64,000 nucleotides of DNA from Candidatus Omnitrophota bacterium (GCA_030693145.1 JAUYBI010000041.1:10228-74227); one strand, 5' to 3'; counted from the first letter of the stretch, positions 9,001 to 64,000 are shown. The notes: a model not told the origin generated them from the letters alone. Numbers and translations: made by a program.

Positions 9001-12000
9001 GCGAAATCGGCAGAAAGATATTTGAATCAATGCAGGAAAATTTCAAGTGGAGATTTAGGAGAGTGGTTGAATTAGGCATAAAAGAAGAGTTCGAATCGGA
9101 ATGGAATAAAATTATAGGAAAAGGTTTAGAACAGGGATTATTAGATATTGGCTCAGACTTATACAAAGAAAAATTGATTGAAAACGCGGATATTTATGTT
9201 TTGAAAGAAAAATTATTTTTTTGGTTTAGGGATATTAAAGAATATACGGATAGGCATGAAAAAATGTATTCAAAAGCATTCTATACCAAATTGGATTTTC
9301 TTGGCAATTGGACGGATGTAATAAAAGGTTGGGGTAAAAAAGCATCGCCGATAAGAAGGGCGTTGAGGGCATTCTTTGATTTAGCCTATTCTGACGAAGA
9401 AATTGAGCAAGTTTCAAAAACCAGAATGAAACGGGCAGAGGTTGTAGCTAAAGAAGTTTCGGATACCGGGGCCCGTGTTGTGTTGGCGCATCCTGGGTTT
9501 GAGTTTTATGTGATAAAAGAAATTAAGTCCGAGACCAAAGAGCCTTTTAAAGAGAAAGTTATTGATATGGTAAATAAGGGTATCCTTCATGCGGTTGGCG
9601 CGGGTTGGCAAAAGGATCAGAGAAAAGGAGTAGCTGAGTTCATAGAGGAGATAAGGAATAAAACAGGCAAAAACGAGGAACAATTGCCTGTTGTTTACAA
9701 CATTCCTGACTACCACGGCAAGGATTACCCGAAAGATACAAAAGAGAGCATAAGAAAAGGCATAGTGCATGATAAAGACGAGAGCGGTAATGTGATAAGT
9801 AAGTATTGGACATGGGAAGATATAATGCCTCCTGATTTTGATAACTACTTCAGAGACGGGGAATTCCTTGCGCAACCGTTTATTAATAAGGCAAATATAC
9901 AGATAGGCAATAAAGATTACACCGGCGCCTTAGAACTTCTTAGAATAGCATATACTACACATCTGTATGACATGAAATTAGAGAAACTGTTTATAGAATT
10001 ATATCGTAAAATCACCAAAGATGGAGATAAAGATTCAATCGAGCATATTTTACGTAATATTTTCTCCGGGAAGGAAGAGCTATTAGATGAGTACATAAGT
10101 AAAGCGGAGAGCGCGCGAGGGTTCAGCAGAGAACAGGTATTAAAAGGTATGTTTAGTCCCAAAGACAAGGAAACAGTGCAAAAGGCAATCCGCTTAGAAT
10201 ACACTGAAGGCGTTTTTGTTCCCAAACAGATAGAGCAGATACTCGCAAGGCTGCGCTCACCTCCGGAAAAACTAAGCCGGTTCCTCTGTTTTGGCGGCGG
10301 AAGCGGCCTGTTGGCTTCAATCAAACCTCTCAAACACCTCATTTCCGGTATCAAAGCGATTATCCAATCCATCCAATCCTCCATAGATGACGGCGGCGCA
10401 ACCTTTAAGATGATCAAAGCCTTGATTGCCAAAGGCTACGGCTGGATACCCTCCGTAGGCGACTTAGTCAACTCCCTCTTCAAAGGCTTTGCCACCATAG
10501 ATAAGACCTATAAGCTCTTAGATGATCAGGGCAGGATAAAACTTGCCACAGAAAAAGATTTAAAGGAAGGCAAGATTCCGCAGGTTGATAAAGAAGGAAA
10601 CGAGTTTAAAGTCGGTAAGATTCTCTTCTATGATGAAGCAGGAAAAGTTATTTATCTTGATACCTTTAAAGAGTTAATCATAAGGTTATTAAAGGGGAAC
10701 ATAGAATATACTTTGATTAACAAGGAAGGTATTGGTTACGCGGAAAAGACTACTCAGGTAAGCGAAGATTATCTGTATTTTGTAATCAGCCTGCTTAACC
10801 TGACGGATATAATCCAGAAATATTTTGACCGTAAGATAATACCTTTAGACGGCGCAAGCATCCGTAACCTCCTCTTATTGGCAGCAATAGATTACTTAGG
10901 TTTGATCAATATCGATATTAAGCCTAAATACGAGCCCAACGAAAGAAAATCTCTTATTAGCAATCCTGAAGAGCTTAAAGTATTCCACCAGGCATTGGAC
11001 CTCTTAGCATTGTTTGCCGGCATCAAAGAAGGCGAATCTTCCTTATCTCACATGATTCCGGCAACCGTTTACTGTGTATATCAGGATACAGTAATCCTCA
11101 TAGAAGAGCCGGCTAAGAAAGAACACAACAAGCACGTTATTATCGTTGGTATAGACAAAGAAAAAGGGCAGATAACCATCAGCACCGATAAAAAAGCCAA
11201 ACAAGAGCCGTATACCTTAGATATTAATAACCCCACGCTAACCTTTACGCTGACAGAAGGCATAAGCGTGACCGTAAATAGGGATAACGACAATAAATTC
11301 AGCTTCTCAGTTAATGAATCAAATAAAACTTCTCTCATAGAACCTGAAGCAATAGAGGAAAGCTCTATAGAATACGAAGCTAAAACATATTCTATTGCCG
11401 CTGATGGCACCGGTAGAGTAAGGTTTGAAACTGAAAAAGCCAATACCTATATATATAAGCCGCTTTTGATGGATAAACTTAACGTCTATGTAAGAAGCAG
11501 ATTCTGCGCTATGCAGACCAACATTACCGAGACTGCCAATTACTCTAAGATAATAGATTTTGGGGTGACCGAAGAAAGAAGCGAAGAATTAATCATTAAC
11601 AAGGACAAAAAAGAAGAGATTCTTGTCCTTTATAAGCCAAGTGAAACAACTCTCATTGCAAACCAAGAAGTAATCAGTGCTATCACCTCGCAAAATACCA
11701 AAGGCATAATTTTTGGCCCGGGTTCCTTCTTTACCAGCCTTCTACCGCACTTTTTGGTTAAAGGATTGCTCGAGGCATTAGCAGGAAGAAGGGTTAAGAA
11801 CGATATTCCGATAGTTTTAGTGATTAACCCCGTGGTAGACAACGAGACTGCCGGCTACAGCCTTATAGAACTGATAAAGTTTATTAAAGATAAGACAGAT
11901 TATACCATTGATGAGTTATTCACAGATGTAATCTTAAACAAATTCGACACCGTGAAGCTGGAAGAATATTTTGGCGTTGAAAGAAAAGCTAGCCCGAAGA

Positions 12001-64000: not shown

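Follow-up and report, generated by a model that had tools for sequence, protein, structure and literature searches.

A phase-locked octamer read as Asp-Gly-Gly between the modules of a giant multi-enzyme open reading frame in Omnitrophota

The giant open reading frame and its nested antisense genes

The window analysed here, a 64-kb stretch of DNA from a Candidatus Omnitrophota bacterium, is spanned by one giant open frame (3..63998, + strand, 21,332 codons) that runs off both window ends. This frame, frame 3, has no stop codon along its whole length and the other five frames have 712 to 2294 stops. It was also the best native coding frame in 417 of 425 windows of 300 nt, and on this ground a large non-coding share of the ORF was rejected. 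The ORF strings whole metabolic enzymes together, with about 28 distinct domain matches: B12/radical-SAM, DegT, APS kinase, two PHP, CofD-like and PGM/PMM modules in the first part; three PGI-like modules, SDH-like+6PGD+6PGL, methyltransferases, PRK+ARMT1, hexokinase and His-phosphatase in the middle; and amidohydrolase, HPS+PHI, PEMT-like, HEAT and CN-hydrolase modules later on. The best protein matches of these modules were Omnitrophota/Omnitrophica MAG fusion proteins. With a length above 10 kAA, many Pfam domains and these homologues, the frame belongs with the multi-enzyme giant ORFs of Omnitrophota type. The hexokinase block had matches only at ≤55% identity, a 3.8-kAA region dense in the octamer described below had no homologue among 5.8 billion proteins, and contig scans of genomes and metagenomes with the 3' end of the window found no close relative. 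Additionally, Pfam and NCBIfam searches of the 21,332 amino acids, including permissive thresholds on un-annotated segments, found no protease domain, the sole match of the permissive search being a weak, ATLF-like one (E=0.03).

Six intact antisense genes of toxin-antitoxin type are nested in the giant ORF:

44294..44566, - strand: DUF5647 gene (90 aa), intact, nested, E=8e-22
45701..45925, - strand: HicB-like antitoxin gene (74 aa), intact, promoter-like TTGACT-17-TATATT at 45953-45925
48231..48440, - strand: DUF2283 gene (69 aa), intact, E=1e-17
50591..50818, - strand: HicB-like antitoxin gene (75 aa), intact, own promoter-like site and GGAGGT Shine-Dalgarno
51191..51568, - strand: DUF5615 PIN-like toxin gene (125 aa), intact, E=6e-23
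51558..51782, - strand: DUF433 antitoxin partner gene (74 aa), intact, E=4.5e-22

The DUF433 gene has a AAGGAGGT Shine-Dalgarno and a promoter-like site at 51839-51811, and the DUF5615 protein has an exact copy in ENA ERZ27245777. Intact antisense toxin-antitoxin operons inside an open frame represent an unusual gene-within-gene organisation for bacteria, and no convincing antisense genes were found in the fusion genes of relatives. Where the giant frame reads through these genes its polypeptide consists of junk stretches.

An octamer read as Asp-Gly-Gly at the module joints

Counted on both strands of the window, GACGGCGG occurs in 30 exact copies, all on the + strand and each read Asp-Gly-Gly (D-G-G); its reverse complement does not occur. 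Dinucleotide shuffles gave a mean of 0.55 copies and a maximum of 2, and GACGGCGG is the most enriched 8-mer of the window (88x); among tripeptides DGG ranks first in enrichment (53 observed versus 5.8 expected, about 9-fold). One-mismatch variants add 26 + strand copies, of which 24 are in phase, and six on the - strand, so 54 of the 56 exact and one-mismatch + strand copies share one phase. An earlier, sequence-only reading of this DNA had described a massively over-represented octamer, always in the D-G-G phase and accompanied by one-mismatch variants; these counts bear it out on each point, and every position that it listed lies at most 8 nt from a true copy. The exact copies of GACGGCGG are as follows:

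10389..10396, +, DGG aa 3463: CofD-containing segment begins
14925..14932, +, DGG aa 4975: TPR module 20 aa downstream
21807..21814, +, DGG aa 7269: 19 aa past PGM/PMM C-terminus; divergent PGI-like module begins
24108..24115, +, DGG aa 8036: conserved N-terminus (INP..AAW) of PGI copy 1 14 aa on
25908..25915, +, DGG aa 8636: 25 aa past PGI copy 1; SDH-like/6PGD/6PGL segment begins
29484..29491, +, DGG aa 9828: 34 aa past 6PGL; N-terminus of PGI copy 2 3 aa on
31308..31315, +, DGG aa 10436: adjoins C-terminus of PGI copy 2; methyltransferase module begins
32265..32272, +, DGG aa 10755: PRK + ARMT1-like segment begins
34449..34456, +, DGG aa 11483: hexokinase 10 aa downstream
35802..35809, +, DGG aa 11934: 11 aa past hexokinase; methyltransferase module begins
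37800..37807, +, DGG aa 12600: His-phosphatase segment begins
38607..38614, +, DGG aa 12869: 36 aa past His-phosphatase domain
39588..39595, +, DGG aa 13196: amidohydrolase segment begins
41976..41983, +, DGG aa 13992: 26 aa past amidohydrolase; HPS (OMPdecase family) 8 aa on
44211..44218, +, DGG aa 14737: opens junk stretch antisense to DUF5647 gene
45987..45994, +, DGG aa 15329: closes junk stretch antisense to HicB; PEMT-like module begins
47178..47185, +, DGG aa 15726: Methyltransf_31 module begins
47952..47959, +, DGG aa 15984: opens junk stretch antisense to DUF2283
48738..48745, +, DGG aa 16246: closes junk stretch antisense to DUF2283
50142..50149, +, DGG aa 16714: 64-aa methyltransferase-motif fragment begins
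50334..50341, +, DGG aa 16778: opens second HicB-antisense junk stretch; flank family A
50925..50932, +, DGG aa 16975: closes second HicB-antisense junk stretch; flank family A
51165..51172, +, DGG aa 17055: opens junk stretch antisense to DUF5615/DUF433 operon; GATGGCGG in sister strain L003
51903..51910, +, DGG aa 17301: closes DUF5615/DUF433-antisense junk stretch; flank family A
52461..52468, +, DGG aa 17487: HEAT-repeat module 23 aa downstream
55524..55531, +, DGG aa 18508: 120 aa past CN-hydrolase domain
59898..59905, +, DGG aa 19966: edge of 57-aa segment
60069..60076, +, DGG aa 20023
61815..61822, +, DGG aa 20605
63576..63583, +, DGG aa 21192

The variant spellings of D-G-G include:

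1947..1954, +, GACGGGGG (one mismatch, synonymous), DGG aa 649: B12-binding domain 41 aa downstream
7461..7468, +, GATGGCGG, DGG aa 2487: APS kinase 145 aa downstream
15759..15766, +, GATGGCGG, DGG aa 5253: within duplicated 28-aa stretch
20163..20170, +, GACGGTGG, DGG aa 6721: PGM/PMM N-terminus 10 aa downstream
40656..40663, +, GATGGCGG, DGG aa 13552: amidohydrolase 37 aa downstream
43209..43216, +, GATGGCGG, DGG aa 14403: left flank common with site 45537 (duplicated module)
44817..44824, +, GACGGGGG, DGG aa 14939: closes junk stretch antisense to DUF5647
45537..45544, +, GATGGCGG, DGG aa 15179: opens junk stretch antisense to HicB (45701-45925)
46029..46036, +, GATGGCGG, DGG aa 15343: 11 aa past site 45987
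46581..46588, +, GATGGCGG, DGG aa 15527
54597..54604, +, GACGGTGG, DGG aa 18199: flank family A (RSARL-DGG)
62706..62713, +, GACGGTGG, DGG aa 20902
63111..63118, +, GACGGAGG, DGG aa 21037

The placement of the word at domain boundaries, also part of the sequence-only reading, is equally clear: none of the 53 D-G-G sites falls inside a Pfam domain, with envelopes covering 28% of residues, and many lie 4-60 aa from native enzyme termini. D-G-G stands 10 aa before and 19 aa after PGM, 10 and 11 aa from hexokinase, 37 and 26 aa from amidohydrolase, and 4 and 12 aa from PGI copy 2, and the two PGI copies are indeed units that run from octamer to octamer (24108-25908 and 29484-31308). D-G-G is thus a short word recurring between independently folding units, as in polyprotein processing, and the enzyme-like segments between words measure 60-2300 aa each, the ORF as a whole exceeding 21,000 aa. 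Some enzyme-enzyme joints have no D-G-G: the first 10 kb, with at least five enzymes, lacks an exact copy, and SDH-like/6PGD/6PGL form one common segment with no internal D-G-G joint. The site at 50334 comes after only 64 aa of a methyltransferase-like fragment. In paralogous PGI linkers D-G-G occupies different alignment columns, which led us to reject its inheritance along with duplicated modules; the sites appear, from these alignments, to have originated independently.

Furthermore, D-G-G brackets every antisense read-through junk stretch of the polypeptide (44211-44817, 45537-45987, 47952-48738, 50334-50925 and 51165-51903). Four octamer sites have a common extended element together with a promoter -35 region on the cassette strand, and in three of the four the element folds no better than shuffled sequence.

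Short, G-rich and strand-biased octamers are also known as genome-wide polar motifs (Chi-like or KOPS/AIMS-like), enriched on the leading strand, and such a motif could be made visible here by one co-oriented gene. The 30:0 strand bias, a + strand GC skew that is positive throughout and an average density of about 1 per 2.1 kb would suit it; known Chi densities include this value and AddAB-type Chi sequences end in GCGG, as the octamer does. We consider this explanation very improbable, since Chi and KOPS motifs are defined by an over-representation that is phase-independent and reaches ordinary genes across the genome, and here the phase lock is strict, near variants included, and none of the ten synonymous octamer opportunities in other phases is used (3 T-A-G and 7 [RG]-R-R). 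The exclusion from domains, the precise placement at module termini and the uneven density (no exact copy in the first 10 kb, 12 within 8 kb of the dense zone) also speak against it, as do relatives, in which the peptide rather than the DNA is conserved and the analogous word SSPV is absent from nine flanking ordinary genes (L007).

Spelling of the word in the window and in relatives

The sequence-only reading held that the octamer is conserved at the nucleotide level, with Gly codons atypical for the ORF. GGC turned out to be the commonest Gly codon of the ORF (31%), and the spelling follows an ORF-wide rule in part: before Gly, nearly every codon family favours NNC over NNT (52% versus 33%, p=3.5e-20), Asp in DG[^G] is GAC in 48% of cases, and the first Gly of other Gly-Gly pairs is GGC in 54% and GGG in 3%. 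GGCGG is 3.5x over-represented in the ORF, with GGAGG, GGTGG and GGGGG under-represented, and the GGC-GG spelling avoids the Shine-Dalgarno-like GGAGG. GAC and GAT are read by one G34 tRNA, and GGC and GGT likewise by one, so tRNA identity cannot explain the preference for C. Part of the uniformity is due to the rule of C before a Gly codon and GGC in Gly-Gly. Once both are counted, the expected number of exact spellings rises from about 4 to about 14 and the excess shrinks to about 2-fold (13.7 expected versus 30 observed, P=2e-6), so the claim of nucleotide-level conservation was overstated, with a residue that stands. Within DGG, GAC and GGC are also associated with each other (OR 7, p=0.003).

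These codon preferences favour a signal acting in the peptide only, as a linker or processing motif whose spelling comes from codon context, with C before GG and with GGC-GG keeping clear of SD-like GGAGG/GGTGG and of G-runs, and from selection to decode critical residues accurately, and whose DNA word has no role. Consistent with it, the sister strain L003, 97% identical, keeps D-G-G at 51165 and spells it GAT-GGC-GGC, which also contradicts strict nucleotide conservation, and words of relatives (RAELR, and SSPV in the orthologue P0018) are freely spelled. As a full account we think it unlikely, given the 2-fold residual excess and the GAC/GGC association, the copied junction DNA in the window, and a clade of relatives in which the word is fixed beyond any codon-context effect and coincides with the exact boundaries of exchanged modules.

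The evidence for copying comes from the flanks. An extended consensus, sought by aligning the octamer surroundings, was not found: positions -24 to +32 carry no information except a mild C preference at the 9th base (16/30), the residues around D-G-G are generally hydrophilic and K/R-rich, and the flanking sequence is unshared at about 45 of 54 sites. About eight sites in the window do have common flank DNA of 20-28 nt, which indicates that junction DNA was copied. Flank family A (..CGCTCAGCGCGCCTT-octamer, read RSARL-DGG) is one such case, and sites 45987 and 47178 have 22 of 30 downstream nucleotides in common. The very recent common origin that had been proposed for the junctions therefore fits these eight or so sites and not the others.

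Related Omnitrophota fusion genes carry other words (SSPV, RAELR, RSEVR) at the same kind of joint, such as the one 3-14 aa ahead of the PGI N-terminus, and the peptide is conserved across species even with every wobble base changed. RAELR occurs in three adjacent genes with varied codons. In one clade (P0012/P0013) the junction word is fixed as a 12-15-mer: SSPV is spelled TCC TCG CCG GTG in 7 of 10 copies, against an expectation of about 0.1 exact copies, and the syntenic orthologue P0012 has a spelling identical to that of its relative. A PGI module that species have exchanged is delimited precisely by this word, TCCTCGCCGGTG: its DNA homology begins and ends on SSPV. One old P0012 copy reads TCA TCT CCC GTC, with all four wobble bases changed and the peptide kept. 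In P0018, a third and more distant orthologue, 10 joints have the SSPV peptide, written in scrambled codons, and here too the word marks the start of the PGI block, so that, judged from P0018, the entity conserved over the long term is the peptide. The octamer itself is absent from both L001 (P0001, 52% GC) and L002 (P0047, 35% GC), the latter partly degenerate and uninformative on motif spelling. Searches for a protease domain adjoining the fusion genes of relatives found none; the conserved N- and C-terminal domains of the P0013 family had no match in Pfam or PDB, and the AlphaFold model of the N-terminal one (mean pLDDT 40) was unusable.

The exact coincidence of the word with exchange boundaries, seen as word-exact homology ends in P0012/P0013/P0018, recalls the DNA-level recombination core that the sequence-only reading had proposed, which was thus given real if indirect support. 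As a complete explanation, this would mean site-specific or microhomology-driven cassette integration, with D-G-G as its harmless translation. The single orientation of all copies, and the bracketing of toxin-antitoxin-type cassettes by octamers, four of them with the extended element and -35 region, are in line with it. It remains quite improbable to us, because the peptide outlasts its spelling in P0018, P0012 and the sister strain, 54 of 56 copies keep one phase with the out-of-phase opportunities unused, there is neither an inverse core nor a consistent hairpin, and no integrase or transposase domain was found in the window or related loci. In addition, the sole strain polymorphism for the lineage of the window breaks at ~51033, away from the octamers, and octamer 51165 lies inside DNA common to both strains and not at its end. 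Two specific classes were rejected on similar grounds: transposon target-site duplications, given unrelated inner flanks at about 45 of 54 sites, the lack of a transposase and the position of octamer 51165; and integron attC or hairpin sites, given no reverse-complement copies, no integrase and elements that in three of four cases fold like shuffles.

An in-frame signal at the level of translation or RNA (a programmed pause, ribosome drop-off or an mRNA processing site, for instance, dividing expression of the giant message) would also predict a phase lock with a nucleotide preference, and domain boundaries are sites where pauses could help co-translational folding. We give this idea hardly any credence: no start codon, Shine-Dalgarno or structure is conserved downstream of the sites, SSPV and RAELR have no nucleotide or peptide property in common with D-G-G, and GGC is not rare in the ORF.

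A proposed punctuation mark and its counterparts in known systems

Weighing all these data, we lean, with no great confidence, towards a reading in which the modules of the giant ORF are set apart by an in-frame punctuation mark, Asp-Gly-Gly, with GACGGCGG as its favoured spelling. D-G-G is probably a lineage-specific peptide mark of this kind with a putative processing role, and its uniform spelling is best read as codon context plus recombinational module turnover. D-G-G would be a recognition signal, most likely a protease site that frees separate enzymes, and a protease cutting there would also discard the junk pieces. Neither the window nor the surroundings of the genes of relatives yielded a protease domain, so this cleavage is wholly inferred. 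Recombination in frame between copies already present, or copying from one to another, may have made and spread the joints, and module gain, loss and shuffling could then account for the residual 2-fold excess of exact spellings. If joints spread by copying, young ones should have one spelling and drift synonymously with age.

A more tentative extension, to which we grant a minority chance, is that the junction word has a dual use as peptide cut site and as DNA docking point for in-frame gene capture, loss and shuffling, the lineage words (DGG, SSPV, RAELR) having evolved with their cognate enzymes. The giant ORF would then be an open, self-punctuating gene-capture platform, and antisense toxin-antitoxin operons could be hosted cheaply, their junk translation being flanked by removable cut sites. 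In this regard, the word that coincides exactly with module-exchange boundaries between species suggests how giant genes may grow and diversify. Lineage-specific words at enzyme termini are the first candidates for points of cutting or exchange in giant proteins, and they provide a simple computational rule to split giant ORFs into modules for structure prediction.

Giant proteins have been described in Omnitrophota as 'Archaeovorins' (West-Roberts et al. 2023, bioRxiv 10.1101/2023.11.21.568195) and as 'multi-enzyme metabolic cluster' giants (bioRxiv 10.64898/2026.06.07.730766). They resemble the window in being very long single ORFs that tile PGI, PGM/PMM, hexokinase, radical SAM, methyltransferases and HEAT. 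C39 and S8 peptidase domains have been reported in them, from which cleavage into smaller products was proposed; whether these giants (10,000 to 147,000 aa) act whole or cut was left open by both studies, and one of them states that it could go no further for want of information on cleavage points. Neither paper reports nested antisense genes, a linker word, a point of cleavage or any motif at junctions, and the ORF termini, where SecA, C39 and signal-peptide features would be compared, lie beyond the window.

A search of the literature on bacterial metabolic polyproteins or junction motifs found nothing, and further counterparts belong to other systems. Viral polyprotein sites (potyvirus NIa, picornavirus 3C Q|G, coronavirus PLpro LXGG|) likewise place a short lineage-specific word at each boundary; unlike them, the gene in the window is chromosomal, bacterial and made of metabolic enzymes, its word can be invariant as DNA too, and its cleavage is putative, no cognate protease having been found. 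Double-glycine leaders of the bacteriocin/ComC type are similar in having Gly-Gly at the presumed P2-P1 positions, and according to the literature C39 domains are common in long Omnitrophota proteins and C39 enzymes cleave after Gly-Gly. The classical leader has hydrophobic residues at -4, -7 and -12, an acidic residue and about 15-25 aa, a pattern absent at the D-G-G sites of the window, where -4 is K/L/Q/R, -4/-5 are K/R-rich, hydrophobics are depleted at -5/-6 and Asp -3 is invariant; with Gly-Gly present, no periodic hydrophobic pattern and no C39 in the window, assignment to this class was rejected. Integron arrays (attC) and Chi/KOPS octamers are comparable as co-oriented short repeats that delimit gene-sized units and as a G-rich, strand-biased 8-mer, respectively, and toxin-antitoxin-type genes with their own promoters among the units are an integron-like trait. 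Unlike integrons, the window has no inverse core, hairpin or integrase, its units form one in-frame ORF, and its repeat is phase-locked and conserved as a peptide. In cyanobactin-type precursors (PatE-like), protease recognition sequences that are near-identical in DNA flank exchangeable core cassettes, and a protease-recognition word doubles there, as is proposed here, as the DNA boundary of swappable in-frame cassettes; those cassettes are 6-8 aa long in precursors of ~70 aa, whereas in the window they are whole enzymes of 60-2300 aa.

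Placement of the octamer in the giant frame

The octamer GACGGCGG occurs 30 times in the window, exclusively on the + strand, against 0.55 exact copies expected from dinucleotide shuffles, and its enrichment exceeds that of every other 8-mer in the window by a wide margin. Frame 3 of the same strand, the giant ORF, contains no stop in 21,332 codons (712-2294 stops in the other five frames), and all exact copies are read in it as Asp-Gly-Gly (D-G-G). The over-representation and single phase claimed in a sequence-only reading of this DNA were therefore borne out, and each coordinate that it had listed lies no more than 8 nt from a true copy. 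DGG is also the most enriched of all tripeptides in the window, with 53 occurrences against 5.8 expected.

A codon-usage frame scan assigned native coding to the giant frame in 417 of 425 windows. The polypeptide was split at the 30 exact sites and the pieces were searched against Pfam and NCBIfam. The resulting chain of modules begins with B12/radical-SAM, DegT aminotransferase, APS kinase, PHP, CofD-like, PGM/PMM and three PGI-like modules, continues with SDH-like+6PGD+6PGL, methyltransferases, PRK+ARMT1-like, a eukaryote-type hexokinase and histidine phosphatase, and ends with amidohydrolase, HPS+PHI, PEMT-like, HEAT and CN-hydrolase. Judged by these matches, the giant ORF is a string of predicted complete metabolic enzymes. 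MAGs of Omnitrophota and Endomicrobiaceae supply its closest homologues, which are multi-enzyme fusion proteins 1,300-4,000 aa long, and the ORF matches the giant proteins that two preprints describe as 'Archaeovorins' (10.1101/2023.11.21.568195) and a 'multi-enzyme metabolic cluster' (10.64898/2026.06.07.730766), a gene class that is already known. The hexokinase module (34449-35801) has the two domains of the eukaryotic type (Hexokinase_1 + Hexokinase_2) and shares 35-41% identity with vertebrate hexokinases; the sequences closest to it (51-55%) are those of other Omnitrophota fusion proteins.

None of the 53 D-G-G sites falls within a Pfam envelope, these envelopes covering 28% of residues (0.72^53 ~ 3e-8), and many enzyme termini lie very near a site: D-G-G stands 10 aa before and 19 aa after PGM, 4/12 aa from the termini of the second PGI, 10/11 aa from those of the hexokinase, 37/26 aa from those of the amidohydrolase and 8 aa off HPS. 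On these two grounds the proposal that the octamer sits at domain boundaries holds. D-G-G has hydrophilic flanks that are depleted of hydrophobic residues and enriched in K/R at -2 and -1. The mark is not present at every joint, and some segments contain several enzymes. At least five modules (B12/radical-SAM, DegT, a GHMP-like match, APS kinase and PHP) lie in 3-10388, a region with no exact octamer and two degenerate D-G-G sites, where no alternative junction word was detectable. In successive regions the exact spelling accounts for 0/2, 3/9, 11/17, 10/15 and 6/10 D-G-G sites. The uneven density of the octamer along the window, together with the exclusion from domains, the phase-locking of the copies counted in the window and the unused opportunities in its other phases, disfavours a Chi/KOPS-like motif of genome-wide occurrence.

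Spelling and origin of the sites

Conservation at the nucleotide level had been argued from the premise that Gly is mostly GGA/GGT in this ORF, which is wrong, GGC being its commonest Gly codon. When synonymous codons were shuffled with the protein fixed, a null that takes no account of codon context, 4.2 exact octamers were expected and no more than 9 appeared in any of 200 shuffles; the window has 30. Before any Gly codon, the giant frame prefers NNC over NNT in almost every codon family across the whole window (52% vs 33%, p=3.5e-20). GAC encodes Asp in 48% of D-G-[not G] cases, against 23% overall, and other Gly-Gly pairs open with GGC in 54% and with GGG in 3%. In addition, the pentamers GGAGG, GGTGG and GGGGG are under-represented and GGCGG is 3.5x over-represented; other spellings of D-G-G produce a G-run or one of the SD-like pentamers GGAGG and GGTGG, and the C-before-Gly rule may reflect avoidance of SD-like sequences inside the gene. 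A context-aware null predicted 13.7 exact copies among the 53 D-G-G sites against 30 observed (P=2e-6), and the exact spelling is thus still in excess, although by about 2-fold instead of about 8-fold. The claim of nucleotide-level conservation was overstated, GACGGCGG being in part the generally preferred D-G-G spelling of the ORF. Furthermore, GAC and GGC are associated within D-G-G (OR 7, p=0.003), suggesting that the sites fall into two classes, with GAC-GGC used at junctions and GAT-GGA at about 6-10 background sites.

The + strand has 26 one-mismatch variants, of which 24 are in phase, and the - strand has only 6. The in-phase variants comprise 13 synonymous and 11 non-synonymous changes, the latter giving NGG (four), GGG (two), DGA, DDG, DGE, DSG and EGG. 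D-G-K is over-represented in the window as well (14 observed vs 7.3 expected), and 6 of the 10 GAC-GGC-X triplets in which X is not Gly encode it (GAC GGC AAR).

Alignment around the octamer revealed no information from -24 to +32 other than a mild C preference at base 9, and the junction word is therefore the bare 8-mer. Only three small families of sites share flanks, the remaining ~45 sites having the 8-mer alone in common.

Sites of the + strand with shared flanks
50334/50925/51903/54597, +, ~24 nt shared on the left, encoding RSARL-DGG
45987/47178, +, 22/30 nt shared to the right
43209/45537, +, common flanking DNA

Copies of an extended element, GGCCGYTCARCGCGCYTT-GACGGYGG (peptide [GD]RS[AT]R[LF]DGG)
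50296-50341
50887-50932
51865-51910
54559-54604

On the minus strand, the GGCCGYTCARCGCGCYTT element lies upstream of a common GCCTTGACTT -35 region in three toxin-antitoxin (TA)-type cassettes, and the extended element may be a common cassette end or operator; the four copies form no consistent hairpin. Two of the PGI copies are 79% identical, and D-G-G occupies different columns of their linker alignment (SEDGGSF in the first vs KEPAAF in the second; LDGGLSK in the second vs VVGLLK in the first), so that these sites arose after duplication, by substitution.

Nested antisense genes and a sister strain

The octamer is densest at 44.2-52.5 kb (12 copies in 8 kb), where stretches of the polypeptide have a non-native composition and the minus strand carries six intact, native-looking toxin-antitoxin-type genes inside the giant ORF.

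Genes nested antisense in the giant ORF
44294-44566, -, DUF5647
45701-45925, -, HicB-like, with promoter-like site
48231-48440, -, DUF2283
50591-50818, -, HicB-like, with promoter-like site
51191-51568, -, DUF5615 PIN-like toxin, in an operon with DUF433
51558-51782, -, DUF433, antitoxin partner of the DUF5615 toxin

Promoter-like sites precede several of them, including the DUF433/DUF5615 operon, and two have Shine-Dalgarno sequences. The junk stretches of the giant polypeptide, which are merely antisense read-through of nested genes, each run from one D-G-G to another (44211-44817, 45537-45987, 47952-48738, 50334-50925 and 51165-51903). Across the 738-nt TA cassette (51165-51902) the giant frame has no stop, against 14 and 22 in the other two + frames, and it stays open in just 3% of cases when the toxin gene alone is recoded at random with synonymous codons; openness is thus maintained by selection or filtering.

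The exact DUF5615 toxin protein was also found on a 952-bp contig of an independent assembly (ENA ERZ27245777). This contig is 96.7% identical to 51033-51856, with the giant frame open here too and the TA pair again nested in it. Its equivalent of site 51165 reads AAC GAT GGC GGC, D-G-G being retained and the octamer lost by synonymous change. Homology between the two strains breaks at ~51033, at a minus-strand terminator-like hairpin and not at an octamer.

Junction words in related fusion proteins

The relatives show no D-G-G excess, and the over-represented words that several of them have instead are absent from the window: R[AS]ELR in P0007 (22 copies), RSE[VL]R in P0023 (12), RSELR in P0005 (7) and [AS]SSP[VI] in P0013 (10), P0012 (7) and P0018 (10). 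One copy stands directly upstream of the PGI N-terminus (RAELRklasvNPTQTKAW; SSPVtavlsrvNPTTTA), the place taken by a 15-residue stretch in the window. RAELR has many synonymous spellings at the DNA level in three adjacent fusion genes of locus L004. These adjoining genes (665-21317; 3,550, 1,463 and >4,312 aa) jointly encode much of glycolysis (PGI, GAPDH, FBPase, TIM, aldolase, iPGM and enolase), and the antisense strand carries a native-looking ORF of 76 aa at 5284-5514. On another Omnitrophota contig (L002, 1-4875, 35% GC) one frame is open throughout its 1,624 codons and encodes mannitol dehydrogenase and a fragmentary PGI, with much of the translation looking degenerate or non-native.

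Syntenic fusion genes of three Omnitrophota MAGs, adjoining a menaquinone operon (UbiE/MenF/MenD)
L007, 10001-16597 and 16620-22337
L008, 10001-18490
L009, 247-5934

ThiC and POR genes lie upstream in two of these MAGs. The fusion genes share an N-terminal domain of ~400 aa (55-64% identity), which bears a signal peptide, and a C-terminal one of ~90 aa; between the two lies a variable set of SSPV-bounded modules. Neither domain had a Pfam/PDB match, and the N-terminal one gave a poor AlphaFold model (pLDDT 40). In P0013 (L007), SSPV is spelled (G/T)CC TCC TCG CCG GTG in 7 of 10 copies, where codon usage predicts about 0.1. These uniform copies are in phase, on the coding strand only and with unrelated flanks, and nine ordinary genes nearby lack the DNA word. 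P0012 (L008), a syntenic orthologue from another species, shares this spelling at 6 of its 7 joints, and its old copy, TCA TCT CCC GTC, has all four wobble bases changed and the peptide kept. The PGI module common to both genes (86.6% DNA identity) occupies different positions in them, and its homology begins precisely at TCCTCCTCGCCG and stops precisely after CCTCCTCGCCGGT, identity being at random level beyond. In the third, more distant orthologue, P0018 (L009), SSP[VIL] occurs at 10 joints with scrambled codons, and the PGI homology block also begins on the word. The peptide, kept under scrambled spelling in the old P0012 copy and in P0018, is thus the entity conserved in the long term, the uniform nucleotide spelling being, on these comparisons, a lineage-restricted state that coincides with apparent cassette-like module exchange.

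The sequence-only reading had proposed a DNA-level recombination core. The word does bound module homology in P0012 and P0013, but a purely DNA-level core is disfavoured by the peptide conserved under scrambled codons, the strict phase-locking, the off-octamer breakpoint of the sister strain and the failure to find an inverse core, hairpin or recombinase. Conversely, a purely peptide-level explanation is viable for the window alone, but leaves both the residual exact-spelling excess and the 12-mer of the P0013 clade unaccounted for. The residual excess, the flank-sharing families and the P0012/P0013 parallel point to joints that may have been propagated by recombination in frame or by copying and may then have drifted synonymously.

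On the best-supported reading, D-G-G serves this lineage as its own junction 'punctuation mark', of a type found in Omnitrophota polyprotein-like genes; its placement, flank independence, peptide-level conservation and bracketing of junk were demonstrated, as were analogous marks in relatives. C39 enzymes cut after Gly-Gly and, since the literature places C39 and S8 domains in such giants, D-G-G would most likely act as a protease recognition site. Both preprints report these peptidase domains, and one explicitly calls the cleavage points unknown (10.1101/2023.11.21.568195; 10.64898/2026.06.07.730766). No protease domain was found in the window or the relatives' loci; the sole protease-related hint in the window, a weak match at 60624-61001 (aa 186-311 of segment 60069-61814) to ATLF, the anthrax lethal factor N/C-terminal domain, lies below the curated cut-off (E=0.031) and is probably noise. 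D-G-G also differs from the classical double-glycine leader, whose pattern is absent around it. Neither preprint mentions a junction motif (10.1101/2023.11.21.568195; 10.64898/2026.06.07.730766), and the literature searched has no description of the junction word, its lineage-specific counterparts, the way it coincides with module-exchange boundaries or the nested antisense TA operons. Polyprotein cleavage-site logic and cassette-boundary repeats are themselves of known kinds, encountered here in a new setting.
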